From: Patescibacteria group bacterium
GTDB lineage: Bacteria; Patescibacteriota; JABMPQ01; JAQVVF01
Assembly (NCBI GenBank): GCA_041662665.1
Contig: JBAZSC010000001.1
Location: 193,511-257,510, forward strand
Reading direction: 5' to 3'
DNA length: 64,000 nt
Under the pieces are notes generated by a model, which had not been told where the DNA came from, searched no databases, and saw nothing but the letters and a program-made list of their open reading frames with translations. This document shows, one piece after another, positions 16,749-48,390 of the stretch. Made by a program: the position numbers and the translations under genes. The first letter of the stretch is position 1, and every line of letters starts with the position of its first letter.

Positions 16749-17456
16749 CTATTTTCCTCTCGCCAAAACCAATCCCCAAATTTCGGAAGGGCCAAAATCA
16801 TAAAAAGATTTAGCGCATTCTTCTAATGTAGCTGAAGTCGTGCAAACATCATCAACCAAAATTATTTTTTTATTTTTAATGAATTCTGGCTTATCGCAAA
16901 AAAATGCGCCTTTGATATTTTTTCGCCGATAAATTGGATTTAAGCTCATTTGCGATTTTGTTTTTTTAGTTCTAGATAAAACATCATTTAAATAAATCAA
17001 TTTAAAATATTTTGCTACTTCAATACATAAAAGTTCGGATTGATTAAAACCTCTTTCTCTTAATCTATTTTTATGCAAAGGAATTGGCAAAATTATAAAT
17101 TCATGATCAATTTTTTCTTTAAATATAGTTTTCTTCAATCCAAAAATCAAAATTTTTGACAATGGTTTAGACAAATCCTGAATATATTTATATTTCAAAG
17201 TATGAATTGCTTTTTGTAGCAGATCATTTTCATAAGTTGCTGAAACAATAATGCCATTTAGTCTTGAAGTCTTTTCACAGTCTTTGCAAAAATTTCCAAG
17301 CTTTGTTGTTTTATGGCATTTTGGACAATCTTGTTTTTCATTTAATTCAATATCCAAAAAACAATGGTCGCACAAAAATTTACCCTCATCACCACAGGAA
17401 ATACATTCAATAGGGAATAGTATATCTAAGCAAAAATTTTTAATTTGTTTTAGCAA
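16749..17456 (-). CDS. comF: ComF-family protein (double zinc ribbon plus phosphoribosyltransferase domain)
   Basis: N-terminal CxxC...CxxC zinc ribbons are present. The C-terminal PRTase motif is IILVDDVCTTSATL. Confidence 0.75.
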   Translation of the reverse strand: MLKQIKNFCLDILFPIECISCGDEGKFLCDHCFLDIELNEKQDCPKCHKTTKLGNFCKDCEKTSRLNGIIVSATYENDLLQKAIHTLKYKYIQDLSKPLSKILIFGLKKTIFKEKIDHEFIILPIPLHKNRLRERGFNQSELLCIEVAKYFKLIYLNDVLSRTKKTKSQMSLNPIYRRKNIKGAFFCDKPEFIKNKKIILVDDVCTTSATLEECAKSFYDFGPSEIWGLVLARGK

Positions 17457-17487
17457 AACTTTATAAACTTTAAAAACTTTATGAACT

Positions 17488-19998
17488 TTATAACTTGTTC
17501 GATTTGTTCAACACGATTCCATTTTTATTTTTTTCAATCTTGATAATAGCATTCTCGCCAAATTCTTCCGAAATTATTCCTTCAGCCAATGGATCTTCAA
17601 TCACTTCGCCAATTGTACCTCGCAAAGGGCGAGCGCCTCTTTCAAAATCAAAACCTTTATCAGCAATTTCTTTTTTAACTAAATCAGAAACTGCAATTTT
17701 GATTTTTTTATTCCATAATCTTTTTTGCAATTCTTTAATTTGCAAATCAATAATTTTCTTGATTGATTCAGGACTTAGCGGTTTGAAAATTACAATTCTG
17801 TCAATTCTATTCAAAAATTCTGGACGATATTCTTTTTTTACATCGCTCAAAATTTCTTTTTTATAATCTTCATAAGTCTTGTCAAAATTTTCTGGATTAT
17901 ATTTTTCAGTCTCGCCAAAGCCAACTGCATTTTTAGTTATCGATTTTGTTCCAGTATTTGATGTCATGATAATTATCGTATTTTTGAAATCAACTTTTGT
18001 GCCTGCAGCATCTGTTAATACGCCATCATCTAAAACTTGCAAAAATAAATTAAAAACATCTGGATGAGCTTTTTCAATTTCATCAAACAAAACAACAGCA
18101 TACGGTTTGCGTTTTATGGCTTCTGTTAATTTTCCGCCTTCTTCATAGCCAATATATCCAGCTGGAGCGCCAATTAATTTGGAAATATTAAATTTTTCGC
18201 TAAACTCTGACATATCAATTCTGATCAAATCATCAATGTTTCCAAAAACTTCCATTGCCAAAACTTTGGCTAATTCTGTTTTTCCAACTCCAGTTGGACC
18301 TAAGAATAGGAAAGAGCCAATTGGTCGATTCGGACTAGAAATTCCAGCTCTTGAGCGTCTTATAAATTTTGCAACTAGCTCAATTGCTTGTTCTTGACCA
18401 ATTACTTTCTTGCCTAAAATATTTTCCAAATTTAATAATTTTTCTTTTTCTTTTGTTACTAATGTATCAAGTGGAATATTTGTCATTAATGATAATGTCT
18501 TGGCAATATCGGAACTAAATATTTCTGGCCAAGTATTTGTATCATCTAAAATTTCATTCAATTTTTCATGCAAAGCTAATTCTTCTTTTTTCAAAATTAA
18601 AGCATCTTTGAATTTTTCTTCTTTGACTTTTTTCTCTTTAATTAATTTAATTTCATCAAGTTTTTGAGATAGAGTCGAAAGTTCGCCATTTATAATTGTT
18701 TTGCCATGTTCGATTTTTAAACGCGATAAAGTTTCATCCAAAACATCAATTGCTTTATCAGGCAAAAATCGATTATGCAAATATCTCTTTGATAAAGAAA
18801 CAGCGCTTTCAAGTGCATCATCAGAAATTTTTGTTCGATGAAATTTTTCAAAATTATTTTTTAATCCTTTTAATATTTTTATAGTTTCTATTTCACTTGG
18901 CTCAACAATTTTAACTAACTGAAATCTGCGTACTAATGCATTATCATTCTCAATTGTTTTTTTGTAATCAGCAAAAGAAGAAGTACAGATAATTTGCAAA
19001 TCATTGGACGACATTGCAGGTTTCAAAATACTTCCGGCATCAAAAGCGCCATTTGATTGGCCCATTGAGATAATGGAATTTATTTCATCAATAAACAAGA
19101 TCACATTTTTATTTTGTGATAATTCATCAATCAATGCTTTCAATCTCATTTCAAATTCACCGCGAAAAACAGTTCCAGCAATCAATTTTGCTGAATCTAA
19201 TTTAAAGATTTTTTTATCTTTCAAAAAACCAGGCACTTTTTTCTCAAATATTTTTTTTGCTAATCCAAAAATAATGGCTGTTTTTCCAACTCCAGACTCG
19301 CCAATTAGTAGAGGATTATTTTTATGTTTTCTGCCTAAAATATTAATAATTCGATCTATCTCTTTTTCTCGTCCGACAATTTTATCGCAATTTTTCAAGA
19401 AATTTTTATCGCAAATATCATTGCAATAAAAACTCAACGCTTCTTTGTCCTTTTTATTCGATCCTTCATAATGCTTGGTCATGTCAGCAAATTTTTCAGT
19501 ATTTTTCAGCATAATGTCTGATTGCTCAATAATATATTTGAGATCGCATTTCAATTCGCGCAATAAAACAAAAGCTTGGCACTTTTTAATTTGTAAAATT
19601 GCCCATAATAAATGTTCAGTTCCAATGAATTTATGATTATGTTTATTCGCGCATGAAAATGATTTTAGCAACAAATTTTTTGTATCGTCAGTTAATGATA
19701 CAAAATCATCATCTTTTTCAGAAGTTTTATTTTTGTTACTCAATAATTTTCCTAAATTTGCATTATTAGAATTATCTTTTTGCTTGATAATTTTTACTTC
19801 CAATTCATTAATTTTTAATCCAGAATTTTTTAAAATTTCAGCAGCAATTCCGCCTTTTTGGGAGGCTAGTCCATACAATAAAAAATCAGAACTTAATTGA
19901 TTAGTTCCAGACTTTTGTGCAGTTGAAAAAGCAATATTGATTGCTTCTTTCAAATTTGTTGAAAATTTATTTAATATCTTTGGTATTTCGTCAATCAT
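17488..19998 (-). CDS. clpC: AAA+ Clp/Hsp100-family chaperone ATPase (ClpC-like, two AAA modules plus a Clp_N domain)
   Basis: Two Walker A motifs (GESGVGKTAI, GPTGVGKTELAK) are present, along with a ClpA/B signature, a short middle coiled-coil and an N-terminal Clp repeat. Confidence 0.8.
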   Translation of the reverse strand: MIDEIPKILNKFSTNLKEAINIAFSTAQKSGTNQLSSDFLLYGLASQKGGIAAEILKNSGLKINELEVKIIKQKDNSNNANLGKLLSNKNKTSEKDDDFVSLTDDTKNLLLKSFSCANKHNHKFIGTEHLLWAILQIKKCQAFVLLRELKCDLKYIIEQSDIMLKNTEKFADMTKHYEGSNKKDKEALSFYCNDICDKNFLKNCDKIVGREKEIDRIINILGRKHKNNPLLIGESGVGKTAIIFGLAKKIFEKKVPGFLKDKKIFKLDSAKLIAGTVFRGEFEMRLKALIDELSQNKNVILFIDEINSIISMGQSNGAFDAGSILKPAMSSNDLQIICTSSFADYKKTIENDNALVRRFQLVKIVEPSEIETIKILKGLKNNFEKFHRTKISDDALESAVSLSKRYLHNRFLPDKAIDVLDETLSRLKIEHGKTIINGELSTLSQKLDEIKLIKEKKVKEEKFKDALILKKEELALHEKLNEILDDTNTWPEIFSSDIAKTLSLMTNIPLDTLVTKEKEKLLNLENILGKKVIGQEQAIELVAKFIRRSRAGISSPNRPIGSFLFLGPTGVGKTELAKVLAMEVFGNIDDLIRIDMSEFSEKFNISKLIGAPAGYIGYEEGGKLTEAIKRKPYAVVLFDEIEKAHPDVFNLFLQVLDDGVLTDAAGTKVDFKNTIIIMTSNTGTKSITKNAVGFGETEKYNPENFDKTYEDYKKEILSDVKKEYRPEFLNRIDRIVIFKPLSPESIKKIIDLQIKELQKRLWNKKIKIAVSDLVKKEIADKGFDFERGARPLRGTIGEVIEDPLAEGIISEEFGENAIIKIEKNKNGIVLNKSNKL

Positions 19999-23064: not shown

Positions 23065-23493
23065 ATGAAAAACCAAAAGGGTTTTACTTTAATTGAGATA
23101 CTAGTTGTTGTTTCTATCGTCGGAATTCTTGCATCAATTGCTCTAATTGGCGTTGATGATGCCAGAAAAAAAGCACGTGATGCTCGGCGAGTTTCTGATT
23201 TGTATCAGATTTCTCAAGCCATTGAAATGTATAACAATGCAACAGGTCAGTATCCAGAAAATTTATCATCAAATCTTACCTCATATTTTCCAAGAGGATT
23301 ACCCAAGGATCCAAATCCAAGTAATAATTACGATTATATTCGTAGTCTCTCCAAATGTTATATTTTGCGTGCCAAATTAGATCGTAATAATAAAGATATC
23401 CTAAAAAGAGATTTAGATAATGAAATTACCTGCGGAGCATCAATAGATTGCAATGACGATTCTCTTTTCTATTGTGTAGGAAATAATCAATGA
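23065..23493 (+). CDS. Second type IV pilin / pseudopilin with a prepilin signal
   Basis: MKNQKGFTLIEILVVVSIVGIL... is followed by a C-terminal domain containing a Cys pair. Confidence 0.75.
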   Translation: MKNQKGFTLIEILVVVSIVGILASIALIGVDDARKKARDARRVSDLYQISQAIEMYNNATGQYPENLSSNLTSYFPRGLPKDPNPSNNYDYIRSLSKCYILRAKLDRNNKDILKRDLDNEITCGASIDCNDDSLFYCVGNNQ

Positions 23494-23524
23494 ATTATGA
23501 ATCAGGAATTATGAATAAAGAATA

Positions 23525-24343
23525 ATGAATCTTATGTTAATCCTAGCTAGCGTAATAATATTAATATTTGGTTTAGTTATCGGCAGTTTTCTTAATGTTG
23601 TCATAAACCGTCTCAATCTTCATCAAAACTTAATTTCGCCAGGCTCGCATTGTCCAAACTGCAAACACAATTTAAATTTTTGGGATTTAATTCCTGTTTT
23701 CAGTTTCATTTTTTTAAGAGGAAAATGCCGTTATTGTCAAAAAAAAATTTCTTGGCAATATCCATTAGTTGAGCTGACAACTGCAATTTCATTTTTATTA
23801 TTATTTTTCAAATTTGTTGATATTAATAATATTAATCTTGATTTTCTTGTTATTTTAGAACAGCTTTTAATCTATTTCTTTTTCACAAGCATCCTGATAA
23901 TAATTTTTGTTTACGATCTTAAGCATTATTTGATTCCGAATAAAATTATATATCCAGCATTAATTATAACTTTGATTTTGCAAATTATCCCAATATCCCA
24001 ATATCCCAATATCCCAATATCTAATTTAATAATTGGCTCATTAATTCCAGGAATATTCTTTCTGCTTTTAGTCCTTGTTTCCAAAGAAAAATGGATGGGA
24101 GCAGGCGATGTCAAATTAGGTTTTTTATGCGGTCTAATGATCGGTTATCCAAATATTTTTGTTGCTTTATTTATCTCCTTTGTTTTAGGAGCAATTATTG
24201 GTATCATTTTAATTATTTCAAAGAAAAAAGATCTCAAAGACAAAATGCCATATGGCACTTTATTAACTTTTGCAACTTTTATTTCTATTCTATTTGGCAC
24301 TCAAATTATAAATTGGTACTTTAGCTTTTTAGGCATAGTGTGA
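23525..24343 (+). CDS. pilD: Prepilin peptidase PilD (A24 family) with an N-terminal zinc-binding CxxC...CxxC
   Basis: The motifs CPNCKHNL...CRYCQKKISWQYPLVEL are present, with multiple TM helices and a conserved GAGDVKL region. Confidence 0.8.
   Translation: MNLMLILASVIILIFGLVIGSFLNVVINRLNLHQNLISPGSHCPNCKHNLNFWDLIPVFSFIFLRGKCRYCQKKISWQYPLVELTTAISFLLLFFKFVDINNINLDFLVILEQLLIYFFFTSILIIIFVYDLKHYLIPNKIIYPALIITLILQIIPISQYPNIPISNLIIGSLIPGIFFLLLVLVSKEKWMGAGDVKLGFLCGLMIGYPNIFVALFISFVLGAIIGIILIISKKKDLKDKMPYGTLLTFATFISILFGTQIINWYFSFLGIV
23986..24021 (+). repeat. 8-nt tandem repeat (tatcccaa) x4.5 inside the pilD coding sequence
   Basis: The stretch reads ttatcccaatatcccaatatcccaatatcccaatatc. The unit length is not a multiple of 3. 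Confidence 0.8.
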
Positions 24344-31333: not shown

Positions 31334-31435
31334 TTACAAAATTATTCACGCAGTTCATAAAGTCTTTAAAGTTATAAAGTTCGTAAAGTCGACTTTAAAA
31401 ACTTTATAACTTTAAGAACTTTATAAACTAAACTT

Positions 31436-33267: not shown

Positions 33268-33447
33268 AGTTGAATCATGAATAAAGAATTATGAATTACG
33301 ATTTAGTTAATATTCAAATTATCTATAATCATAATTCGCAATTTTAACATAATTCATTATTCATAATTCTTGATTCTTATAAAATTTCAGCTAAATTTCA
33401 GAAACAAACTTTATACTATTATTGTTATTAATCTAATTTCCGAAAAT

Positions 33448-36895: not shown

Positions 36896-36900
36896 TTAAA

Positions 36901-36938: not shown

Positions 36939-37047
36939 CTTTTCAAAAGTATTATTTTGTTGTAAGATAATATAAAGTAAATATAATTGTGATAGGTATA
37001 ATTTCCTAGTTACTAGTTACTTTTTTACTAATTACTAAGTTTTTATC

Positions 37048-37239
37048 ATGCCAAAAAAAACTTTGACCAGGACAAAAGCTGGAATTGATACAAAAATAAT
37101 TTCACGAACCGCAATCGCGACATCAATTTTTGTTTTGTTAGCTTTGATTGCCGGTTTTTCTTATGGAATGTCAATTAAATTTACAGGCGAAAAAAACAAA
37201 GCAGTTGCCAACAATTTTTTTCAACAATATATAAAATAA
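37048..37239 (+). CDS. Small single-TM hypothetical protein
   Basis: A 63-aa ORF with a hydrophobic core. Confidence is low. Confidence 0.3.
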   Translation: MPKKTLTRTKAGIDTKIISRTAIATSIFVLLALIAGFSYGMSIKFTGEKNKAVANNFFQQYIK

Positions 37240-37313
37240 CTGTTCAATTGTTAAATTGTTAACTTTGTTAATATTTTAACAATTTAACTATTTAGCAATT
37301 AAACAATTTAGCT

Positions 37314-37769
37314 ATGTTAAAAGACCGAATCAATAAAGATTTAATTACTGCATTAAAAGCAAAAGATCAGGAAAAATCTTCAATTTTAAGATTAATTAAT
37401 TCTGAAATCAAAAACGAAGAAATCGCCAAGAAAAAAAGAGAGCAAGGCTTAAATGACGAAGAAACTCAAGCTGTAATTGCTCGCCAAATCAAACAAATCA
37501 ATGATTCTATTGAATCTTTTAAGGCTGGAAAAAGAGAAGATCTAGTCAAGGAAGAAGAACAAAAATTAGCAATCTTAAAAGTCTATTTGCCAAAACAAAT
37601 AGAAAAAGCAGAAGTTGAAAAAATCGTTGATGAAGTCATTGCTCAAGTAAAGCCATCGAGTCCATCAGATTTTGGCAAGGTTATGGGGCAAGTTATGGCA
37701 AAAGTCAAAGGCAAAACTGATGGAAAAGTTGTGAATGAACTTGTTAGAAAAAAATTGAATGAGAATTAA
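37314..37769 (+). CDS. yqeY: GatB/YqeY-domain protein
   Basis: A 151-aa protein with MLKDRINKDLITALKAKDQEKSSILRLINSEIKN, typical of YqeY. Confidence 0.75.
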   Translation: MLKDRINKDLITALKAKDQEKSSILRLINSEIKNEEIAKKKREQGLNDEETQAVIARQIKQINDSIESFKAGKREDLVKEEEQKLAILKVYLPKQIEKAEVEKIVDEVIAQVKPSSPSDFGKVMGQVMAKVKGKTDGKVVNELVRKKLNEN

Positions 37770-37800
37770 GAATTATGAATCAAGAATTATGATTTGAATA

Positions 37801-38181
37801 ATGAATAAAACAAAAATAAAATCTTTTACAGATTTAAATGCTTGGAAAGAAGCGCATGTCTTAGTTATAATGATTTATAAAATTACTAAAACATTTCCCA
37901 AAGATGAATTGTTTGGATTAATTAATCAGCTTAGAAGATGCGCTGTTTCTATAACCTCAAACATTGCAGAGGGATTTAGCAGACCAACTTACAAAGAAAA
38001 AATAAAATTTTATTATACTTCTTTAGGTTCTGTAACTGAACTTCAAAATCAAATTTTAGTTGCGAGAGATATTGAATATTTATCAAACAAAGATTTTCAA
38101 AAAATTGCCAATCAAAGCATAACTGTCCATAAACTTATAAATGGATTGATTAAAAAATCAAAAACATTTAAAAAATCATGA
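37801..38181 (+). CDS. Four-helix-bundle protein (23S rRNA intervening-sequence protein family), copy 1
   Basis: AWKEAHVLVIMIYKITKTFPKDELFGLINQLRRCAVSITSNIAEGFSR is present. The gene is flanked by inverted 'aattatgaat' word repeats at 37770-37800 and 38176-38235. Confidence 0.75.
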   Translation: MNKTKIKSFTDLNAWKEAHVLVIMIYKITKTFPKDELFGLINQLRRCAVSITSNIAEGFSRPTYKEKIKFYYTSLGSVTELQNQILVARDIEYLSNKDFQKIANQSITVHKLINGLIKKSKTFKKS

Positions 38182-38217
38182 TTCATAATTCTAAATTCAA
38201 ATCATAATTCTTAATTC

Positions 38218-38775
38218 ATGATTCATAATTCTCGTAAAAAAAGTGTAGTCAATATCCCAAATGCCTTATCTCTTTTTCGATCTATTGTAATTTTTGTTGT
38301 CTTTTTTGCCCTTTTTGCTGATATTAATTTTCTGCTTCTTCAGATTTTAGTTGTTTTAGCAATTGTTAGTGACAAAATTGATGGCAGCTGGGCAAGACAT
38401 TTCAAAGAAACATCGAGATTTGGCATGCTCTTTGATTCATATGCTGATGCTGGATTTATTGCTATTTGTCTTATTTATGCAATCTTAAAATTAGATTTTC
38501 CAATTTACATTTTGTATTTTGGTTTGCCATTTGTTTTTATAATTTTACTTTTCTATTTAATATTTTCAATATTTGGCAAAAAAATTATTTCTTTTTGGGA
38601 TTTTGGCAAAAGGTTAGAATCAAAATCTACAGCCGTTGTATTATTCACTCTAATTATTTTTTATTTTTTCGATCTTCCGCTTAAAGTATATGTTGCTTGG
38701 TTCATGTTCGTTTATATTTATCTTTATTTATTTTATTATTTATATATAGCTATAAAACATGCAAAGAAAAAGTGA
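38218..38775 (+). CDS. CDP-alcohol phosphatidyltransferase family protein, paralog 1
   Basis: D-x2-DG-x2-AR...G...D-x3-D pattern (DKIDGSWARHF...FDSYADAG). Multi-TM. Confidence 0.7.
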   Translation: MIHNSRKKSVVNIPNALSLFRSIVIFVVFFALFADINFLLLQILVVLAIVSDKIDGSWARHFKETSRFGMLFDSYADAGFIAICLIYAILKLDFPIYILYFGLPFVFIILLFYLIFSIFGKKIISFWDFGKRLESKSTAVVLFTLIIFYFFDLPLKVYVAWFMFVYIYLYLFYYLYIAIKHAKKK

Positions 38776-39364
38776 AAAACCAAAAATAAAAGACATTATA
38801 AAAATTCCTAACATTTTAACAAGCATTAGAATAATAATTGCTTTGACAATTATTGCCTTATTTTTTACTAACAACCATATTTGGTTAGTAAAATGGCTTT
38901 TTGTAATCGGAATTTTAACCGACACATTAGATGGCAACATTGCTCGTCTTTTTAATCAAAAATCAAGATTAGGAGTCATGCTAGAACCAATAGCTGACAC
39001 TTTATTAGTAGCAGGTACAGTTTTGTTTGTTACTTTCAGACTCGATCTTCCAAAGTTAATATTCTTAATTTATGTTGCAGTAGTCTTTGTTGGATTTCTT
39101 GGAATAGTTTTTGTCTATTTAATCAGAAGAGAATGGTTCGCTGACAAACTGGTAGTTTCTGAAATTGCAATTGTTTTTGTTTATGGAACAGGTATTTTTT
39201 ATCTTTTTGGATTGCCATACAAAAATTATCTAGCGCTATTTACAATTGGCTTTGGGATTGCTGCTTTAATAGATCTAATCATAAAATTAAAAAGGTTTAA
39301 AGGCCGAGCGAAATTTAAATTAGAAAAACTTCAGAATAGCAAAGATTTCAAAATGCTGAAATAA
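38759..39364 (+). CDS. CDP-alcohol phosphatidyltransferase family protein, paralog 2
   Basis: DTLDGNIARLFNQKSRLGVMLEPIADTLL is present. It is a tandem paralog of the previous gene. Confidence 0.7.
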   Translation: MQRKSEKPKIKDIIKIPNILTSIRIIIALTIIALFFTNNHIWLVKWLFVIGILTDTLDGNIARLFNQKSRLGVMLEPIADTLLVAGTVLFVTFRLDLPKLIFLIYVAVVFVGFLGIVFVYLIRREWFADKLVVSEIAIVFVYGTGIFYLFGLPYKNYLALFTIGFGIAALIDLIIKLKRFKGRAKFKLEKLQNSKDFKMLK

Positions 39365-39471
39365 TACGAATATACGAATTTATGCAAATCAACGAATTTA
39401 CGAATGAGCGAATTCGCGTATATTTGCATATTTGTAGATTTGCATAGATTCGTAGATTTGTATTATATTTT

Positions 39472-40581
39472 ATGAATAAGTCACCAAGTAAAATAATTTT
39501 AATCGGCATTATCTTAATTCTTGCCGCAACTGTTGGGATTATTTTTTTTACAAAAGATAATAAAAAATCAGTAACTGGTGAAACAATAATTGATTTAACT
39601 TCGTCAAAAAAAGATTCCGCCTCCGCTCCAAAAGATTCAGCAGACAAAGCAGAAAATTCAAATTCGGAAATTAATTTAACTGCAGTTGGCGATATTATTA
39701 TGTCTCGCCATGTTGGCGTAAAAATCAAAGAATCTGGTGACAATGCTTTGCCGTTTCGAAAAGTTAGCGATATCTTGTCAGCAGGCGATATCACATTTGG
39801 TGATCTAGAAGCTCCTTTTTTAAATCAAGGCGATTTAATTACTGAAGGTATGAGCTTTAAAGCTGAGCCAGAATTTATTGAAGGCATAAAATTAGCAGGT
39901 TTTGATGTTATGGCTATGGCAAATAATCATACTAAAAATCAAGGCCCAGAAGGTTTGCTTTTCACTTTCGATCTATTAAATCAAAATAATATTAAGTTTT
40001 GCGGAGCAGGAAAAAATTTCGCTGAAGCACATCAGCCAGCGATTTTAGAAAGCAAAGGCAAAAAATTTGCTTTTCTAGCTTATACTTATTCTGACGGTAT
40101 TGACTTCCAAACTCATTTGAGCGAAAATGAACCAGACGTTGCTTTTTGGGATGCTAATCAAGCAAAAATAGATATCGACCAAGCTAAAACTCAGGCAGAT
40201 AGCGTTATAGTCTATATGCACGCTGGACAAGAATATTCTCCAAAGCCAATTCAAGATCAAATCAATTTTGCACATAGTGCAATTGATAATGGCGCAGATC
40301 TAGTCTTAGGCTCTCATCCGCATTGGGTTGAGACAACAGAAAAATATAAAGATAAATACATAATTTATTCAATGGGTAATTTTGTTTTTGATCAAGATTG
40401 GTCGCAAGAAACAAAAGAAGGTGTTATAGTTAAATTAAAATATAAAGACAACAGATTTAATCAAGCCGAATTTATTCCAGTTATTATTGAAGATTTTAAT
40501 CAGCCAAGGGTAGCTAATGATGCGGAAAAGTCGAAAATATTTAATCAAATGGAATTGAAAAGTTCTGTAATTAATTTCTAA
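39472..40581 (+). CDS. capA: CapA/PgsA-family metallophosphatase-like protein (poly-gamma-glutamate synthesis/capsule CapA family)
   Basis: An N-terminal TM helix and the motifs VGDIIMSRHVG, ANNHTKNQG, YMHAGQEY and LGSHPHWV of the PGA_cap domain. Confidence 0.75.
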   Translation: MNKSPSKIILIGIILILAATVGIIFFTKDNKKSVTGETIIDLTSSKKDSASAPKDSADKAENSNSEINLTAVGDIIMSRHVGVKIKESGDNALPFRKVSDILSAGDITFGDLEAPFLNQGDLITEGMSFKAEPEFIEGIKLAGFDVMAMANNHTKNQGPEGLLFTFDLLNQNNIKFCGAGKNFAEAHQPAILESKGKKFAFLAYTYSDGIDFQTHLSENEPDVAFWDANQAKIDIDQAKTQADSVIVYMHAGQEYSPKPIQDQINFAHSAIDNGADLVLGSHPHWVETTEKYKDKYIIYSMGNFVFDQDWSQETKEGVIVKLKYKDNRFNQAEFIPVIIEDFNQPRVANDAEKSKIFNQMELKSSVINF

Positions 40582-40589
40582 TGATCAAG

Positions 40590-40700
40590 ATACAAGAAAC
40601 AAACAAATCAAAATATTCAAATTACAATGACCAAACTCGTCGAGTTTGATTTTTGGTTATTTTAATTTGAAATTTGTTTGTATCTTGTTTCTTGGTTATT
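40590..40700. repeat. Long palindromic 'caaa/tttg' word-repeat hairpin region between convergent genes; it includes the perfect palindrome caaactcgtcgagtttg
   Basis: Inverted repeats are visible. It probably acts as a bidirectional terminator. Confidence 0.5.
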
Positions 40701-40717
40701 TGCAAATAAAAAAGCCA

Positions 40718-41281
40718 TCACTTCGATGACTTATGAAAAGGTTCAAAAAAATCAGGATGTTCAAGTAAAAACCACAAAATTTCAGGATCTCCATAATCAA
40801 TCATTCGTAAATTACCTTTAGTATCATAACAGAAATTATTTTGTTCCCAATGATGTGCAAGCTGAGCTGATCCAAGATTGAACGATTTACAATCAGGATC
40901 AAATGGATGAATTCTATATAAATCTAAATACATTGCTTTTGCCGCTTGAAAATCAAAATCAGCTTGATATCCTCTTTTTTGAATATTGACCAATCCTATT
41001 GAAAAATAAGTTGGCATCATATTCTTCCGTTTGTAACGAGCAGAATAAACAAATTCTAGCCAATTATGCTTAATAGCTAATGGCCAACGTTTTCTGATTG
41101 CATAGAAGATATCTCTGATACATCTATCCCAAAAACTAATTTTTCTAATGGGTGATCTGCAGTCATTAAGTCCAGCAAAATTAAACCAATTACGCCATAT
41201 TTCATCAAAAATATAAGTTTTGGCAACCTTTATCGCAAATGGTCCTACTAAAAATACAATTCTGTTATTGCCTAAATGCAT
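40718..41281 (-). CDS. Hypothetical protein with a protein-kinase-like minimal motif set (possible small atypical kinase)
   Basis: FAIKVAK (VAIK-like), HHWEQNNFCYDTKGNLRMIDYGD (catalytic-loop and DFG-like) and a Trp-rich sequence. The homology call is weak. Confidence 0.35.
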   Translation of the reverse strand: MHLGNNRIVFLVGPFAIKVAKTYIFDEIWRNWFNFAGLNDCRSPIRKISFWDRCIRDIFYAIRKRWPLAIKHNWLEFVYSARYKRKNMMPTYFSIGLVNIQKRGYQADFDFQAAKAMYLDLYRIHPFDPDCKSFNLGSAQLAHHWEQNNFCYDTKGNLRMIDYGDPEILWFLLEHPDFFEPFHKSSK

Positions 41282-41352
41282 TTTTTGTCCTCCTGGTTTG
41301 TGAAAGTGCTAACTTCTAATCTTATTAAAAAATTATCTTAAAGTCAATTATC

Positions 41353-41931
41353 ATGCAAAATATTTTTGAAATTAGAATTCATGCTCGAGCCCAACAAGGC
41401 GCAAATACAGTTGCGCATTTTTTCGCTGAAAGCGTTATTAATTATGGCAAATATGCTCAAGCCTTTCCATATTTTGGACCAGAAAGATCAGGCTCGCCAT
41501 TAATGTCTTTTGTCAGGATTTCTGATGAGCCAATTAGAATTTATTCTCAAGTTTATAATCCAAATATTTCAGTTGTCATTGATCAAACTTTGCTAAATAC
41601 TGAAAATGTTGCTAAAGATTTTACAGAAAAACAAATGGTTTTAGTTAATTCTCCTAAATCAAGCGAACAAATTAATCAAATTCTAAAAAGCAAAGCCAAA
41701 ATTTATTCAGTTGATGCCAATAAAATTTCAGAAGAAATTTTTGGCAAAACAATTCCAAACACAGTTTTGCTCGGCGCTTTGATTAAAGTTTTAGAAATAG
41801 ATAATCAAAAATTTATTACTCTTGATCATGTTGTAAAAACAATTAATCAAGAATTTCCAGCGAGATATGGACAATTGTTGACTGATCAAAACGTTAAAGC
41901 TGTAAAAACCGGATATGACTCAGTCATATAG
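41353..41931 (+). CDS. porG: Pyruvate/2-oxoacid:ferredoxin oxidoreductase gamma subunit
   Basis: IRIHARAQQGANTVAHFFAESVINYGKYAQAFPYFGPERSGSP is diagnostic of the POR gamma subunit. Confidence 0.85.
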   Translation: MQNIFEIRIHARAQQGANTVAHFFAESVINYGKYAQAFPYFGPERSGSPLMSFVRISDEPIRIYSQVYNPNISVVIDQTLLNTENVAKDFTEKQMVLVNSPKSSEQINQILKSKAKIYSVDANKISEEIFGKTIPNTVLLGALIKVLEIDNQKFITLDHVVKTINQEFPARYGQLLTDQNVKAVKTGYDSVI

Positions 41932-42080
41932 TTTTAATTTATAATTTTAAATTTCTAATTTCTATTAAATTTTTAATGCTTTAATTTTTAAATCTATTTT
42001 TGATCGTCGATGTTTAGAAATTAATTCATTAGGAATTTAATAAAAATTAGAAATTAGAAATTGAAAATTAAATAAAATTT

Positions 42081-42335
42081 ATGTCAGATTTACATATCGG
42101 TGCAAAAATTATTGAGCCAGGTTCATCAATTAGTAATAAAACTGGTTCTTGGAAATTACAGATTCCAATTGTTGATCGAAAAAAATGTCAAAATTGTTTG
42201 CAATGCGTCCAATATTGTCCAGAAAATTGCATTAAGGCAAAAGATGACAAACTAGATTATATTGATTTGAATTACTGCAAAGGTTGTGGAATCTGTGCGC
42301 ATGAATGTCCAAACAAATCGATAATCATGAAGTAG
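42081..42335 (+). CDS. porD: POR delta subunit (2x[4Fe-4S] ferredoxin)
   Basis: Two CxxCxxCxxxCP clusters are present. Confidence 0.85.
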   Translation: MSDLHIGAKIIEPGSSISNKTGSWKLQIPIVDRKKCQNCLQCVQYCPENCIKAKDDKLDYIDLNYCKGCGICAHECPNKSIIMK

Positions 42336-42430
42336 GAGTTAAATTTCCGAATATCATAATATCCGAATATTTTTTTTAATCAAAGCACGATATTCGGATA
42401 TTGAGATATTAAGATATTAAAAATCTAAAC

Positions 42431-43585
42431 ATGAATAATAAATTTAAAGCCATTACTGGTTCTCAATCAGCAGTTGAATCAATGCGCCAGATAAATCCTG
42501 ACGTTGTTTCAATTTATCCAATTTGCCCGCAGACATTCATTATTGAATTTTTTTCGCAATTAGTTGCTGATGGCAAAGTTGATACTAAAGTTATTACTGC
42601 TGAATCAGAACATTCTGTTATGTCAGCTTGTGTTGGAGCATCTGCATCAGGTGCCAGAGTCATCACTTCGACAGCATCATTAGGTTTGGCCTTGATGTGG
42701 GAAGTATTAGGTGTTGCTTCAGGATTGCGCTTGCCAATTGTTATGCATCTTGTAATGCGTGCTTTGTCAGCTCCAATTAATATCCATAGCGATCATTCAG
42801 ATGCTATGGGAGCAAGAGAACAAGGTTGGATTCAATTATTTTGCGGCAATAATCAAGAAGTTTATGATTTTTCAATCATTGCCCAAAGATTAGGAGAAAA
42901 ATTATTTTTGCCAATAATGGTTTGCCAAGATGGTTTTACAACTTCGCATAGTGTTGAAAAAACATTTGTTTTAGAAGATAATGATGTTAAAAATTTTGTT
43001 GGCGAATTCAAACCAGATCGTCCGCTTTTGGATATTAAAAATCCAACAACTTACGGTCCATTGTCATTGCCAAACACTTTTACAGAAATAAAAAAACAGC
43101 AATTTGATGTCTACAATAATGTTGGCCAAGAATTTTTAAATATTAGTTCAGAATTATCAAAATTAACAAATCGAAATTATAATTTAATTGAAGAATATAA
43201 AACAGAAGATGCTGATACAATTATAATCATTTTAGCTTCAACAGCTTCAACTTCAAAAGTTGTTATTGATGAATTAAGAGCCAAAGGACAAAAAGTTGGT
43301 TTAATTAGACCAATATTATTCCGTCCGTTTCCATATCAAGAAATTTCCAAAGCTTTAGCTAATGCAAAAAAAGTCGCAGTTTTAGATCGATCAATTGCAT
43401 TTGGCGCTATGCCTCCATTATATTCTGATGTTATGCTGTCTCTAAGTTCTTTAGAATCAAAACCACAAGTTGCATCATATATTTACGGTTTAGGCGGTCA
43501 TGATACGGTTTTGGCTGATATTAGAAAGGTTTTTCAAGACTTAGAAAAAGGAGAATTTATAGGTAAGGCAAAATTTTTGCACTAA
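42431..43585 (+). CDS. porA: POR alpha subunit
   Basis: 384-aa product with a POR/KOR alpha-subunit N-terminal domain (…VSIYPICPQTFIIEFFSQLVADGK…). Confidence 0.85.
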   Translation: MNNKFKAITGSQSAVESMRQINPDVVSIYPICPQTFIIEFFSQLVADGKVDTKVITAESEHSVMSACVGASASGARVITSTASLGLALMWEVLGVASGLRLPIVMHLVMRALSAPINIHSDHSDAMGAREQGWIQLFCGNNQEVYDFSIIAQRLGEKLFLPIMVCQDGFTTSHSVEKTFVLEDNDVKNFVGEFKPDRPLLDIKNPTTYGPLSLPNTFTEIKKQQFDVYNNVGQEFLNISSELSKLTNRNYNLIEEYKTEDADTIIIILASTASTSKVVIDELRAKGQKVGLIRPILFRPFPYQEISKALANAKKVAVLDRSIAFGAMPPLYSDVMLSLSSLESKPQVASYIYGLGGHDTVLADIRKVFQDLEKGEFIGKAKFLH

Positions 43586-43683
43586 ACATTGTTTAATTGC
43601 TCAATTGTTAAATTGCTAACAATTTAACAAATAAAAATTTTGGAATGCAAAATTTTTATCAATGTAACAATTTTGTAATAATG

Positions 43684-44412
43684 TTAAATACTAATAATCC
43701 GTTAATCATTGCACACAGAGGAGCTTCTTCGTATGCTTTTGAAAATACCTTAGATTCATTCAGGAAAGCATGTACTTTTGGCGCGGATATGATTGAACTA
43801 GATATCAGAGTTACAAAAGACAATGAATTAATTGTCTTTCATGATTCAGCAATTGATCGCATGACCGATGGTTCTGGTTTAGTCCAATATTTTACTCTTG
43901 CTGATTTAAAAAAAATTAAAATTCATGGAGAAGCAATTCCAACTTTGGAAGAGGTTATAAAAGTAACTTTAGGAAAAACAAATTATAACTTTGAAGTAAA
44001 AAATATTCCTTTAGCAAGCATCGATAAATTAATCGCGCTTTTGGATAAATATAATCTTCGCTATAAAGTAATAATTTCTTCATTTAATAGAAAAATTATT
44101 TTAAGAATAATAGAAATTGACCGCCAAATAAAAATTGCTTTATTGTGTTGGCAACTCAGAAAAAATAATCTCAAATTTATCCAGAAAAATGATCTGAATT
44201 ATGTGCATCCATATTATGGATTTTTAACTAGAAAAAAAATCAAGCAAGTCCATAATTTAGGCATTAAAATTAATACCTGGACTGTCAATTGGTCACTAGA
44301 TTTGAAATGGGTAATGGAATTAGGTGTTGATGGCGTGATTACGAATCGACCTGATTTAGCAAAAGCAGTCTTAGGCAAAATGAACAGACAAAAAACAACG
44401 CTCCATAGTTAA
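43684..44412 (+). CDS. Glycerophosphodiester phosphodiesterase (GDPD family), inserted inside the por operon
   Basis: IIAHRGASSYAFENTLDSF...ELDIRVTKDNELIVFHD is present. The ORF is open from 43645. Confidence 0.8.
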   Translation, partial: LNTNNPLIIAHRGASSYAFENTLDSFRKACTFGADMIELDIRVTKDNELIVFHDSAIDRMTDGSGLVQYFTLADLKKIKIHGEAIPTLEEVIKVTLGKTNYNFEVKNIPLASIDKLIALLDKYNLRYKVIISSFNRKIILRIIEIDRQIKIALLCWQLRKNNLKFIQKNDLNYVHPYYGFLTRKKIKQVHNLGIKINTWTVNWSLDLKWVMELGVDGVITNRPDLAKAVLGKMNRQKTTLHS

Positions 44413-44445
44413 AAAGTTCCTAAAGTTATAAAGTTTATAAAGTAA

Positions 44446-44790
44446 ATGAAAATTAAAAAATTTGAAGAAATTATTTCTTGGCAGAAAGCCGGAACTTTAA
44501 GTCTAAATATATATAAACTTTTTAAGCATTCAAGAGATTTCAGTTTTAGAGATCAGATTCAAAGAGCCTCGATATCAATGATGAATAATATTGCTGAAGG
44601 ATTTGAAAGAAAAACTAATAAAGAATTTAAAAATTTTCTTTATATCGCTAAAGGCTCTTGCGCTGAAGTCAGATCAATGTTATATATTGCTTTCAAACTA
44701 GAATACATAAATCAAAAACAGTTTAATGAAAATTATAAATTATGTTTAGAAATATCAAAAACAATTTCAGGTCTAATCAAGACTTTATGA
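44446..44790 (+). CDS. Four-helix-bundle protein (23S rRNA IVS family), copy 2, inside the por operon
   Basis: ISMMNNIAEGFERKTNKEFKNFLYIAKGSCAEVRSMLYIA is present. It is flanked by inverted 'agttataaagttt' repeats. Confidence 0.75.
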   Translation: MKIKKFEEIISWQKAGTLSLNIYKLFKHSRDFSFRDQIQRASISMMNNIAEGFERKTNKEFKNFLYIAKGSCAEVRSMLYIAFKLEYINQKQFNENYKLCLEISKTISGLIKTL

Positions 44791-44820
44791 ACTTTATAAC
44801 TTTAAAAACTTTATAACTAT

Positions 44821-45771
44821 ATGATAACCCTTAAAGAATTAGTAAAAAAACCAAATTATTTAGAATCCGGTCACGGCACTTGTCGCGGTTGTACTGCTAT
44901 TCCTCAAATCGTTAGAACAATTCTCAAAGCATCAGACAAGCCAGTCATCGTTGCTAATGCTACAGGTTGCATGGAAGTCACAACAACAATCTATCCGACA
45001 ACTTCTTGGAAAGTTCCTTGGATTCATTCTACTTTTGAGGCAGTTGGCGCATTGGTCTCTGGTGTTGAAACTGCTCACAGAGCTTTAGCCAATAAAACAA
45101 TTCAAGATGCAAATGGCAAAGAAATAAAAATTGAGGATTGCAATTTTGTCGCTTTTGCTGGAGACGGAGGTTCATATGATATCGGTTTGCAAGCTTTATC
45201 TGGTATGTTAGAAAGAGGCCATAATTGTCTTTTTGTTTGTTATGATAATGAAGCTTATATGAACACTGGAATTCAAAGATCTGGAGCTACTCCTTTTGGC
45301 GCTGAAACTTCAACAACACCAGACGGAAAAAAACATCATGGCAAAGAAGAAAAAAGAAAAAATTTAACAAAAATTGCTATTGCTCATGATATTCCATATG
45401 TTGCCCAATCATCTGTTTCTCATTGGCAAGATTTATACGAAAAAGCGCATAAAGCTTTCGAAATAAAAGGTCCAAAATTTATGAATGTCATTGCTCCTTG
45501 CACAGTTGGCTGGAAATTTAATGAAAATTTAGGCATTGAAATTTCTCGTCTTGCAGTTGAAACAAATTTTTGGCCTCTTTACGAAGTTGAAAATGGAAAA
45601 TACAAAATTAATTACAAACCAGAAAAAAGAAAATCAATTGAAGAATTTTTAAAACCGCAAAAACGTTTCGCACACTTGTTCGAAGCAGGCAATCGTAATC
45701 TAATTGTTAAAATACAGAAAGATGTTGATCAGGAGTGGGAAAAGCTGGTAAAAAACACCAAAACACTCTAA
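44821..45771 (+). CDS. porB: POR beta subunit (TPP-binding)
   Basis: GCMEVTTT..GDGGSYDIGLQ is the TPP-binding region of the POR beta subunit. Confidence 0.85.
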   Translation: MITLKELVKKPNYLESGHGTCRGCTAIPQIVRTILKASDKPVIVANATGCMEVTTTIYPTTSWKVPWIHSTFEAVGALVSGVETAHRALANKTIQDANGKEIKIEDCNFVAFAGDGGSYDIGLQALSGMLERGHNCLFVCYDNEAYMNTGIQRSGATPFGAETSTTPDGKKHHGKEEKRKNLTKIAIAHDIPYVAQSSVSHWQDLYEKAHKAFEIKGPKFMNVIAPCTVGWKFNENLGIEISRLAVETNFWPLYEVENGKYKINYKPEKRKSIEEFLKPQKRFAHLFEAGNRNLIVKIQKDVDQEWEKLVKNTKTL

Positions 45772-45856
45772 CACTCCAACACTTTTTTAAAAACACTAAA
45801 ACATTAAATTTTTGTGTGTTCAAGTGTTCGAGTGTTTAAGTGTTCATCTCAACGTC

Positions 45857-46267
45857 ATGACAAAATTCCAAGAAAAACTGAAATTAAAAATGGATGAGTA
45901 TGTGCATTTCGTTTATCTTGTAACAAAAAAGTTTCCAAGAGATGAATTATATGGAGTTACATCACAAATTCGTCGAGCTAGCCTTTCTGTAATACTCAAC
46001 TATCTCGAAGGCTATGCTAGAAGAAGACCGGCTGTTCAGTTGAATTTTTTTGAAACCTCATATGGTTCATTGAAAGAATCAAAATATTTGTTGCATTTTT
46101 CGATGAAAGAAAAATATTTATCAATAGAGGATTATAAGCATGCTATCAAATTAGCAGAAGAAATTGGTGCAATGCTTTGGTCTGAAATAAAATCATTAGA
46201 CAATAAGACGCAAAAACACCCTAAAACTTTAACAAAGAAACACTCGAATACTAAAACACTCAAATAG
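45857..46267 (+). CDS. Four-helix-bundle protein (23S rRNA IVS family), copy 3
   Basis: YGVTSQIRRASLSVILNYLEGYARRR is present. It is flanked by the exact 17-bp direct repeat cgagtgtttaagtgttc at 45839-45855 and 46291-46307. The ORF is open from 45812. Confidence 0.7.
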   Translation: MTKFQEKLKLKMDEYVHFVYLVTKKFPRDELYGVTSQIRRASLSVILNYLEGYARRRPAVQLNFFETSYGSLKESKYLLHFSMKEKYLSIEDYKHAIKLAEEIGAMLWSEIKSLDNKTQKHPKTLTKKHSNTKTLK

Positions 46268-46293
46268 GTCACTACATATGTATTTTTTTTCGA

Positions 46294-46980
46294 GTGTTTA
46301 AGTGTTCTAGTGTTTCAGTGTTTAATAACACATCCATGCAAAACAAAACAAAAAATTTAGAAAAGCAGAATAAGCAACATAATACTACGCTAATCATCAG
46401 CCTCAGTATTTTTGTTGGGCTTTTGATTTTCATTTTAATTATTTCAAGTGCTTCATTCTTATTTATAAAATATTTTAACAATCAAAAATCAAAATCATTT
46501 TCTAATGCCAAAAAATGGCAATTGGCTTTAGATGGCTTAGAAGAAGAACCAATAGTTACAGTTCCAACCGAAGATCAAGATGAAAGAAAGCAAAATACTG
46601 GAACGATCGGTCAAACTATTTCAAACGAAATTTTAGATTTGCAAATTAATTCAAATAAAAAAATAAATCTAAAATCTAGCCAGCCAGCAAAAGATAATGA
46701 TTTTTATAAAATAGATTTTTCTCTAAAAAATAATACTGCTGATGATCAAAAAATATCAATTTTATATTTTAGCTCCGAAGATCCAGATGATGGCGAATTT
46801 TCTTTAGTCATTCCAAGTCAAAATGATAATCAGTCAGTATTTGAAGAAGAAATCTCGCTTTCTCCTGGCCAAAAGAAGAGTGGCAGTCTAATTTTCGAAG
46901 TCAATAAAAATGTCCCCAACATTGATTTTATTTATGATGATAATACAAATACAAAAATCTTAATAAAATTAGAAAAATAG
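46294..46980 (+). CDS. Membrane-anchored hypothetical protein with an extracytoplasmic beta-rich domain
   Basis: An N-terminal TM helix (LIISLSIFVGLLIFILIISS). The likely start is the internal Met near 46336. Confidence 0.45.
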   Translation: MFKCSSVSVFNNTSMQNKTKNLEKQNKQHNTTLIISLSIFVGLLIFILIISSASFLFIKYFNNQKSKSFSNAKKWQLALDGLEEEPIVTVPTEDQDERKQNTGTIGQTISNEILDLQINSNKKINLKSSQPAKDNDFYKIDFSLKNNTADDQKISILYFSSEDPDDGEFSLVIPSQNDNQSVFEEEISLSPGQKKSGSLIFEVNKNVPNIDFIYDDNTNTKILIKLEK

Positions 46981-47086
46981 AAAGTGTTTATAACTTATTG
47001 CTTTTACCTTGAATCTTGTACTTCAATATAAAAGAAAATTGTGTTATAATAAAATAGTCAAATTTAGATATAACAAAAACAACAAT

Positions 47087-47611
47087 ATGAAAAGAATAAC
47101 TGCCTTTTTGGTAATTGTCGGCTTATTTTTTAGCATTTCAAATTGTTTTGCAACAAAAATAAATTATCAAGATTCTGGTCTAGGAATCTCAATTTTGCTT
47201 CCCTCAACTTGGACTCTCACTTCCAGCAAGGGAAGCCGTTTTTTTTATGGTAAGAACATAATTCTATTTAGCATTCAAAAAGCTGGTGTTTCAACTTCTG
47301 AGATAAATAGTTGGAAGAAAAATCATCTGGGATTAGCAAACAGTTTTGCAATTGAGTATGCAAAAGGTTTTTCTCAAGGTGTTACATCTATACATCCAAC
47401 TAGAGTAAAGAACTATACAAAATTACCTTACAAAGCAGCAAAAGTTATCTACAAAGGACATTCAGGCAATACAAAAATTAAAACAGCCCAAATAATTATA
47501 ATAAAAAATAAAAAACTTTATCTATTAACAGGTTTTGCAAAATTAAAGAAATTCGATGAATCAAATACAAAATATTTTGCACCGGTTTTTCAATCATTCA
47601 GATTGTTATAA
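47087..47611 (+). CDS. Secreted hypothetical protein
   Basis: A signal peptide MKRITAFLVIVGLFFSISNCFA is present. The ORF is open from 47009. Confidence 0.45.
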   Translation: MKRITAFLVIVGLFFSISNCFATKINYQDSGLGISILLPSTWTLTSSKGSRFFYGKNIILFSIQKAGVSTSEINSWKKNHLGLANSFAIEYAKGFSQGVTSIHPTRVKNYTKLPYKAAKVIYKGHSGNTKIKTAQIIIIKNKKLYLLTGFAKLKKFDESNTKYFAPVFQSFRLL

Positions 47612-47626
47612 AAATAAAAAAATAGC

Positions 47627-48361: not shown

Positions 48362-48390
48362 AATAAGTTTTATATTTTCTAGAAAAAAAT

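Follow-up and report, generated by a model that had tools for sequence, protein, structure and literature searches.

Genes for PF05635 four-helix-bundle proteins of a Patescibacteria group bacterium lie in operons as cassettes bounded by subfamily-specific word arrays

Introduction

The window analyzed here is a 64 kb stretch of DNA (31% G+C) from a candidate-phyla-radiation (CPR) bacterium of the Patescibacteria group (GenBank assembly GCA_041662665.1, contig JBAZSC010000001.1, positions 193,511 to 257,510 of the forward strand). It encodes three small four-helix-bundle (4HB) proteins whose genes are located between ordinary genes and are flanked by short repeats. The question raised by this locus is whether the genes and their repeats are independent features that lie side by side, insertions with their own expression signals, or parts of one element. 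The three loci exhibit an architecture of the intervening sequence (IVS) type combined with a co-directional, spacer-free placement in operons, and comparison with other genomes shows that PF05635 genes generally are word-array cassettes with subfamily-specific words, present in operons, in several phyla and in rRNA. We favor, with moderate confidence, the reading that each 4HB gene is the cargo of an IVS-type cassette set co-directionally between the cistrons of an ordinary operon, with arms that pair into an RNA stem and release by RNase III.

Three 4HB genes and their operon context

The three genes are all encoded on the forward strand. Copy 1 (37801..38181) encodes a product of 126 aa that is homologous to XCC0516 (PDB 2GSC; match at E 4.6e-19), copy 2 (44446..44790) a product of 114 aa, and copy 3 (45857..46267) a product of 136 aa, whose C-terminal extension of 16 aa is encoded by AACAC words. 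The ORFs are present where the preliminary description of this DNA had placed them, and their products match both PF05635 (E of 6e-36, 2e-34 and 2e-24 for copies 1, 2 and 3; Pfam scores of 123.3, 118.7 and 86.6 bits, cutoff 33.8) and TIGR02436 (118.3, 116.2 and 85.9 bits, cutoff 24). Copy 3 also lies above the Pfam bAvd threshold (44.2 bits). A phmmer search of all six-frame ORFs identified no fourth PF05635/TIGR02436 member in the window. The core motif R-x3-S-x3-N-x2-E(G) has been noted for Xcc0516 homologues (PMC3936711); in an alignment of the three copies with 15 homologues (A1), S50, N54, E57 and G58 are invariant and R46 is nearly so. This family-wide alignment is too divergent to serve for locus finding.

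Relatives of each copy number in the thousands, are approximately 65–78% identical and are spread over many CPR phyla. Orthologs of copies 1 and 3 are found at the same sites in two syntenic loci of other genomes, L082 and L105 respectively, with dS values of 1.1–1.5, close to the dS of the neighboring genes, and dN/dS values of 0.05 for copy 1 and 0.10 for copy 3; a mis-framed sequence (h174) was left out of this comparison. The 4HB ORFs are under purifying selection and old at their sites, and a recent insertion of copies 1 and 3 is contradicted by their presence at unchanged positions in relatives with a dS above 1. A profile scan for the copy-1 family gave no match in viral contigs, and PADLOC gave no match for the window proteins.

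Copy 1 is located between the genes for YqeY and a CDP-alcohol phosphatidyltransferase, copy 2 between a glycerophosphodiester phosphodiesterase (GDPD) gene (43645..44412, forward strand) and porB, and copy 3 between porB and a DUF4352 gene. The neighbors are protein genes, and no rRNA was detected in the window by Rfam, which identified one tRNA only. The GDPD gene and copy 2 together separate porA (42431–43585) from porB (44821–45771), in agreement with the preliminary description. Genomes for comparison were obtained from a PorB profile scan that yielded at least 80 loci, which are distant (at most 60% identity) and belong to many phyla. Among the matches listed, porA is adjacent to porB in 75 of 77 other genomes, one of them a Moraniibacteriota genome, with a median estimated gap of 38 nt; the proposal that porA would be found directly followed by porB elsewhere is borne out to this extent. 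A GDPD gene lies between porA and porB in none of the 77 other genomes among the matches listed, and none of the 80 PorB loci listed contains a 4HB gene.

Arms and word arrays

The arms of copy 1 are arrays of heptamers. The upstream arm (37761..37806, forward strand) consists of approximately six tandem units (GAATTAA, GAATTAT, GAATCAA, GAATTAT, GATTTGA and a last unit beginning with AT) and includes both the stop codon of YqeY (37767–37769) and the start codon of the 4HB gene (37801–37803). The downstream arm (38188..38233, forward strand) is composed of the inverted heptamers (ATNATTC)n, pairs with 37761–37806 in both the minimum free energy (MFE) and the centroid fold and includes the start codon (38218) of the CDP-alcohol phosphatidyltransferase gene. 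The two arms are 46 nt long and 87% complementary, longer than the inverted repeats given previously, an 18-mer that is indeed found at 37782 with its reverse complement at 38195.

The arms of copy 2 have the same organization with different words. The upstream arm (44405..44443, forward strand; words AAAGTTNNT) includes the GDPD stop codon (44410–44412), and the downstream arm (44782..44820, forward strand; words ACTTTNNN) stops one base short of the porB start (44821). The last codons of the 4HB gene, ACT TTA TGA, are themselves the first downstream word. The arms are 39 nt long and 90% complementary, with AAAGTTAT given as the repeat unit; the previously quoted 13-mer, confirmed at 44424 with its reverse complement at 44806, is again only part of them. 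The word length is 7 nt in copy 1 and 8–9 nt in copies 2 and 3, and the words are placed in tandem directly before the start codon. The arms overlap the stop codons of all three upstream genes (YqeY, GDPD and PorB) and reach the downstream starts, with 38218 inside the arm and 44821 just after it.

Copy 3 has four arrays instead of two, in the order AACAC, GTGTT, ORF, AACAC, GTGTT, with AACACTNN and GTGTTNNN given as the repeat units. The outer upstream array (45746..45808, forward strand) of AACAC words overlaps the 3' end and stop codon (45769–45771) of porB and is the canonical upstream arm of the subfamily. It pairs locally with the inner upstream array (45811..45846, forward strand) of GTGTT words. 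The inner downstream array (46212..46264, forward strand) of AACAC words lies within the 3' extension of the ORF, and the outer downstream array (46280..46330, forward strand) of GTGTT words is the subfamily's canonical downstream arm. An exact 17-bp direct repeat, CGAGTGTTTAAGTGTTC, had been reported around copy 3. The repeat exists, at 45829–45845 and 46291–46307, the first position having been given 10 bp too far downstream; its proposed nature as a target-site duplication does not hold, since its two copies lie in separate arrays of the 8-nt word GTGTTNNN that belong to the arm architecture of the copy-3 subfamily. No direct repeats were seen flanking copies 1 and 2 or in the flanks of the related loci inspected.

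The strength of this arrangement was scored for the 61 ATG-ORFs of the window that encode 100 aa or more. The flank-inverted-repeat score is 30 for copy 1 and 27 for copy 2, followed by 14 for the next best ORF and a median of 8; copy 3 scores 12–15 in the same comparison. A scan for long inverted repeats identified 21, of which 16 are local hairpins with arms 0–63 nt apart. The arms of the remaining five are more than 300 nt apart, and three of these five enclose exactly the three 4HB ORFs. Tandem Repeats Finder identified 7–9-nt word arrays in numerous spacers of the window, frequently as inverted pairs side by side. Word hairpins are generic in this genome, yet only 4HB genes sit inside one. 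The preliminary description had stated that generic intergenic repeats without relation to the 4HB genes would speak against it; the repeats are generic, and their relation to the 4HB genes is strict in position and specific in word.

The heptamer length was examined in relation to the reading frame. Seven is coprime with three, and three GAATCAT units provide both ATG and TGA (as ATGA) in all frames. In the window and in related loci (L111–L190), upstream genes end inside copy-1-type arms and downstream genes can start in the arm whatever their frame. Judged from the words themselves, this frame-free ATGA may explain how cassettes can be placed between cistrons without harm.

Related cassettes in other genomes

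The relatives of each copy are found in different gene contexts and carry their arms with them. Relatives of copy 1 are located between YqeY and the CDP-OH transferase (the syntenic L082), between ProRS and FolD, between FolD and GreA, and between an S26 peptidase and HisRS; the ProRS|FolD and FolD|GreA relatives belong to one genome, which encodes the identical protein twice. All of them have arms of the form (GAATNAT)n upstream and (ATNATTC)n downstream, with the start codon in the last upstream unit and the stop codon beside the first downstream unit. Relatives of copy 2 are located between AI-2E and HsdM, between GT2 and an NTP-transferase, and between RRF and RseP, with AAAGTNNT words upstream and ACTTTNNN words downstream, the C-terminal 'TL*' codons again forming the first downstream word. 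Relatives of copy 3 are found between PorB and DUF4352 (the syntenic L105), between FtsW and MurG, and next to HxsD (HxsD|x), with AACA(C/A) words upstream and (G/T)TGTT words downstream. Further subfamilies met by chance in L121, L124, L131 and L176 have still other words. The arms belong to the gene and not to the site, and each protein subfamily keeps its own word.

Of the 80 loci obtained in a metagenome scan for the copy-1 family, 56 are unique and have both flanks, and 160 ORFs from the same loci served as controls. The median flank inverted-repeat score is 15 for the 56 loci and 7 for the controls (Mann-Whitney p=2e-24); a score of at least 13 is reached by 79% of the copy-1-family loci and 5% of the controls, and the top-scoring controls are further 4HB genes or their immediate neighbors. 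The spacing between units is 7 nt in 360 of 377 unit pairs, and most arms have 4–5 units. Of 99 neighboring genes, 96 share the strand of the 4HB gene (upstream 50/50, downstream 46/49), at median gaps of 29.5 nt upstream and 23.5 nt downstream.

The words of the two arms are also matched to each other. Among the 56 loci, 43 have GAAT upstream and ATTC downstream, four have GTAT upstream and ATAC downstream, one is discordant (GTAT/ATTC), and eight have one arm that is unclassifiable. At copy 3, AACACT/AGTGTT of the window corresponds to AAACAAT/ATTGTTT in the L105 ortholog. Since variable unit numbers make column alignment unreliable, complementarity was compared within and across loci; it is 14.7 for arms of the same locus and 11.8 for arms of other loci (permutation p<=1e-4). 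These results show that the two arms change in a compensatory way. The word variants co-cluster in part with the protein tree.

Duplication, turnover and decay

Two genomes contain duplicates of a cassette within one locus. The two cassettes flanking FolD in L083 are 98.4% identical over 432 nt, and the two cassettes in L141 are 95.4% identical over 458 nt; in both loci the homology stops at the outer arm edges. The arms and the ORF are inherited and duplicated as one unit. In L105, PorB is 85% identical to that of the window and the 4HB gene upstream of porB is 28% identical to copy 2; judged by this identity, the site is occupied by a different 4HB subfamily than in the window. The core of the preliminary description, namely small cassettes of arm, ORF and inverted arm located between genes, is supported by the travel of the arms with the gene, the arm-to-arm identity of paralogs, the subfamily swap in L105 and the usual adjacency of porA and porB elsewhere.

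The spacers of the por operon also differ from those of L082. The porG–porD spacer is 149 nt with a hairpin in the window and 20 nt without one in L082, and the porD–porA spacer contains AATATCCG words in the window and GAATCAT words in L082. A truncated copy-1-family ORF is found in L152 (1642–1911), approximately 500 nt upstream of an intact copy, with its frame broken after approximately 90 codons; it is a probable pseudogene, so that cassettes also decay. In L099, a tRNA-like sequence (2375–2460, read by eye) directly follows the downstream arm of a copy-2-family cassette and precedes the type I restriction gene hsdM.

The contigs of two relatives stop exactly at cassettes, L001 starting at porB and L105 within a 4HB gene, and a large proportion of the contigs bearing 4HB genes of these families measure only 0.5–2 kb. 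It is probable that such repeats systematically fragment metagenome assemblies of CPR bacteria.

ORF-less hairpins and solo arrays with cassette words

The words of copies 1 and 2 are also found in the window without a 4HB gene. An ORF-less hairpin of copy-1-type words (GAATNAT / ATNATTC; 33271..33376, forward strand) can be aligned with the two arms of copy 1 joined together, the odd inner unit GATTT included, and a second hairpin of copy-2-type words (AAAGTNNT / ACTTTNNN; 31352..31429, forward strand) has 39-nt arms and no spacer. A solo array of copy-1-type heptamers (23485..23531, forward strand) is without an inverted partner. A solo array of copy-2-type words (17456..17493, reverse strand) lies between two minus-strand genes and has matches in L103 and L101, in the upstream arms of cassettes of the copy-2 family. 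Most BLAST matches of these ORF-less arrays adjoin 4HB ORFs in other genomes (88/105 and 67/80), the first count being that of the 33271–33376 hairpin. No Rfam family was found for the word hairpins.

RNA folding and proposed mechanism

When folded as RNA, the arms of copies 1 and 2 form a stem that closes the whole ORF in both the MFE and the centroid structure, with z-scores of -6.2 and -4.2 respectively. In the favored reading, the unit is 4–6 tandem words of 7–8 nt, a PF05635 ORF and then the same words inverted. The cassette would lack a promoter and be co-transcribed with the host operon. In the RNA, the arms of copies 1 and 2 would pair into a dsRNA stem of approximately 40 bp around the ORF, the place of which would be taken in copy 3 by two local hairpins. 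RNase III is proposed to cut this stem, as shown for rRNA IVSs, which would free the 4HB mRNA and part the flanking cistrons undamaged. The ORF-less hairpins and solo arrays of the same words may be derivatives of cassettes or landing pads, and recombination between shared words would be the most economical route for cassettes to spread or to replace each other. The 4HB protein, which is homologous to Avd and to the pentameric toroid XCC0516, would probably have the arrays of its own word as its target.

Several observations weigh against the IVS-type reading. Copy 3 has no enclosing stem and folds into a local hairpin on either side of the ORF (z -5.9), and its ortholog in L105 has a weak enclosing stem of 12 bp (z -1.8). 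The compensatory change of the arms could also be due to concerted evolution between the arms as DNA and not to selection for RNA pairing. On plasmid pPg_01 of Pseudanabaena galeata (L193, 1375–1990), a 4HB gene located between cas6 and cas4 has direct arrays on its two sides, (CTAAAAG)14 preceding and (CCAAAAG)10 following it; because of these direct arrays and the solo arrays of the window, the pairing of arms is not the whole story, and the words themselves may matter. As copies 1 and 3 have been kept at the same sites at saturated dS, any mobility is slow or ancient. No close relative was found with a true empty site, L082 and L105 both carrying cassettes at the orthologous sites, and a motif search identified no RNase III gene or motif in the 64 kb window. 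Finally, co-transcription, the stem in vivo and cleavage by RNase III are all inferred.

Relation to known elements

ORF-bearing intervening sequences in rRNA have been known since 1993, with hosts that include Leptospira and Coxiella burnetii. The Coxiella IVS contains S23p (PF05635) in the loop of an inverted-repeat stem, with 2–3 tandem GACAGAT heptamers before the ATG; RNase III sites were mapped in the stem, and the origin of the IVS and the role of its ORF were called unclear in 2016 (PMC4990558). The cassettes resemble rRNA IVSs in having a sense PF05635 ORF in the loop of a long terminal-inverted-repeat stem (copies 1 and 2), tandem heptamers of variable copy number directly before the start codon, no recombinase gene and a sporadic, apparently horizontal distribution. 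They differ in that the host transcript is an mRNA operon with neighbors whose stop and start codons are overlapped by the arms, and in that one genome contains many subfamilies with their own words, plus ORF-less versions in other spacers. The S23p ORF of Coxiella is reported to be decaying and probably untranslated (PMC4990558), unlike the window ORFs with their strong purifying selection. Excision by RNase III without religation is a trait of rRNA IVSs that would be shared by the window cassettes by analogy.

A search of plasmids with tblastn identified a 4HB copy without an annotated CDS on plasmid p2 of Azospirillum lipoferum, which Rfam placed inside a 23S rRNA gene (L191, 1792–4990). 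Its arms are inverted heptamers of the GGACAGA type, 30 nt long and 90% complementary, and form a closing stem with a z-score of -9.3. Plasmid copies of Calothrix, Nostoc, Stanieria and Riemerella have the same design with the words AGGGTGT, GGAGTCA, CAGAGGG and AAGGTTY. PF05635 genes have also been reported in CPR rRNA insertions and inside cas operons, and a full-text literature search found no published description of flanking word arrays on PF05635 genes outside rRNA.

Arrays of heptamers have been known since 1990, the intergenic STRR of cyanobacteria being of this kind. The Xanthomonas genome contains 186 GGGAATC arrays and 70 inverted pairs, for which no function was found, and Nostoc has a GGGGAYT array type (PMC4692102); an array of four GGGAATC units lies over the start codon of XCC0516, next to bccP (supplement, PMC4692102). 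TAACTGA arrays occur in Beggiatoaceae, cyanobacteria and Bacteroidetes, for which MacGregor in 2015 postulated a heptamer-binding, possibly mobile protein (PMC4679880). These heptamer arrays are similar to those described here in being tandem and mostly intergenic, at a short distance from gene ends. Many lie between genes of the same direction, convergent (inverted) pairs are frequent, array length varies between relatives, and no function or partner protein is known for them. The 2015 studies on Xanthomonas, Nostoc and Beggiatoaceae drew no link to PF05635 (PMC4692102, PMC4679880), whereas the arrays described here bracket PF05635 genes in a subfamily-specific manner.

The cassettes share with integron cassettes the form of small promoter-less single-gene units between genes, and with MITEs and insertion sequences (IS) the terminal inverted repeats. 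Unlike integron cassettes, they have repeats on both sides, no single 3' attC-type site, no integrase and no cassette array, and unlike MITE and IS elements they have neither a transposase nor a target-site duplication.

These comparisons join three separate threads, namely the ORF-bearing rRNA IVSs, the intergenic heptamer arrays and the very large orphan PF05635 family that includes Avd. The window contains IVS-type elements living in mRNA operons, and this plausibly reaches the puzzle of the bacterial heptamer repeats. A tentative extension, which we hold to be possible and at present doubtful, is that PF05635 proteins are the missing cognate partners of the heptamer and octamer arrays in CPR bacteria, cyanobacteria (STRR), Xanthomonas (GGGAATC), Beggiatoaceae and Bacteroidetes (TAACTGA), each subfamily recognizing its own word, and that the ORF-bearing 23S rRNA IVS is a copy of this operon-borne element that landed in rRNA. 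The ORF-less arrays and hairpins would then be non-autonomous targets, and AAAGTNNT, GAATNAT and AACAC/GTGTT would be the words of the window subfamilies. If the cassette reading is true, it provides an annotation rule: genes labeled 'four helix bundle protein', of which there are hundreds of thousands, could be annotated together with the repeats beside them as a single element. It would also explain the CPR assembly breaks at cassettes and suggest that operon transcripts in reduced genomes are punctuated by processing stems.

Alternative explanations

The same arrays could belong to a protein-plus-repeat system that works mainly through the words, similar to REP/RAYT, in which the 4HB pentamer binds its cognate tandem words as DNA or single-stranded RNA and either mobilizes arrays and cassettes or regulates ORF-less arrays, the inversion around its own gene being autoregulatory or a by-product. 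This would account for the possession of an own word by each protein subfamily, including those of L121, L124, L131 and L176, and for the partial co-clustering of words with the protein tree, but co-inheritance of word and protein is also expected if both move as one unit, and the binding is putative. There are 4–5 units per arm, and the homologue XCC0516 is a homopentamer (PMC4990558), with five chains in 2GSC. Direct arrays on both sides in Pseudanabaena and the solo arrays in the window also fit, as does the Xanthomonas genome, in which XCC0516 is embedded in one of the 186 arrays (PMC4692102), and the protein postulated by MacGregor would be of this kind (PMC4679880). ORF-less hairpins and solo arrays of the same word are found in the same genomes, where GAATNNN arrays of at least three units occur away from 4HB genes at 15.9 per 100 kb in copy-1-family loci, compared to none in 855 kb from other phyla; on the other hand, the hairpins of the window use many words with no visible cognate gene in the 64 kb. 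A REP/REPIN-RAYT pair similarly consists of a single protein gene between inverted short repeats that recur as gene-less hairpins across intergenic regions. The 4HB proteins differ in lacking the HUH/Y1 (IS200/IS605-like) transposase features of RAYT, with only PF05635 and bAvd matches, and no nuclease, recombinase or HUH domain was recognisable in them by domain, PHROG and PADLOC searches. The repeats are tandem arrays of 7–8-nt words and not one palindromic unit, there are several protein–word pairs per genome, and mobilization by the protein is putative. A system of this type is rather unlikely as the main explanation, and it is not mutually exclusive with the IVS-type cassette.

Autonomous insertion cassettes, with their own promoter and terminator and a transposition-like insertion producing a target-site duplication, were what the preliminary description had in mind. 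The cassettes are indeed discrete, porA and porB are adjacent elsewhere (in 75 of the 77 other genomes among the matches listed), and the exact 17-nt repeat is present at copy 3, but this repeat lies inside the GTGTT word arrays of the subfamily and has no counterpart at copies 1 and 2 or their relatives, and a transposon with target-site duplication was rejected for this reason. An own promoter and terminator are unlikely because the short co-directional gaps of approximately 25–30 nt (96 of 99 neighbors being co-directional) consist of arms, which leaves no room for them; promoter-like sites are at chance (58 vs 51±8), and a terminator scan found no terminator-like site adjoining a cassette. 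There is no transposase or integrase among the window genes, and no integrase beside the window copies or among the called neighbors of the fetched context loci. Such cassettes are improbable, and it is still less probable that three ordinary small genes lie by coincidence between generic hairpins acting as terminators or mRNA stabilizers. The arrays and hairpins in many spacers without a 4HB gene, and their turnover against L082 at orthologous spacers, are what coincidence would predict; against it, only 4HB genes are enclosed by matched arms while control ORFs of the same loci are not, and a given subfamily has its words on both sides in dozens of unrelated contexts across several phyla. With the 56 loci against 160 controls (p=2e-24) and the subfamily-specific words, coincidence was rejected. 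Diversity-generating retroelements (DGRs) are common in CPR bacteria, and their accessory protein Avd, which acts on structured RNA together with a partner enzyme, belongs to a homologous four-helix-bundle fold family. All three proteins match the Avd PHROG (E 1e-11 to 9e-6) and copy 3 passes the bAvd threshold, so the genes could be DGR remnants or accessory genes. They nevertheless score 22–38 bits against a cutoff of 80 with the NCBIfam Avd equivalog, and they stand alone in housekeeping operons, with housekeeping genes as neighbors in all contexts examined. No reverse transcriptase motif was found in six frames of the window and no suitably sized ORF near any copy, and no template/variable repeat pair was found within 33000–51000. 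The DGR origin, which lacks both components, is extremely improbable and was rejected.

Other repeats in the window

Hairpins with other words are located in spacers at 41933–42072, 42350–42410, 39361–39466, 40586–40694, 22326–22394, 699–801, 2183–2319 and 31733–31839. The words of these spacer hairpins include TTTCTAA, AATATCCG, ACGAAT, CAAGANA, GTAGTAN, CAATTAT and AAATTCC. The hairpin at 31733 matches the upstream arm of a 4HB gene in L121 (1259–1288), and the hairpin at 699 matches L121 at 644–666. At orthologous sites in L082, spacer hairpins have another word or are absent. A perfect 8-nt array, TATCCCAA x4.5 (100% matches), is found at 23986–24021; it lacks an inverted partner and matches none of the fetched loci.

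A 71-nt direct repeat (82% identical; 34776–34846 and 36894–36964) brackets a repeat-rich ORF of 672 aa (34877–36895). The repeat includes a terminator-like hairpin, AAAAGCACTTAACAAGTGCTTTTTT, and the ORF is absent from the syntenic L082; the arrangement resembles an insertion or deletion that took place between two duplicates of a terminator region. A perfect 11-nt tandem, AAACAAAATGG x3.8 (34870–34911), lies over the start of this ORF and provides an ATG in each unit. The unit is not a multiple of 3, and the array is a candidate for a slippage-controlled (phase-variable) start.

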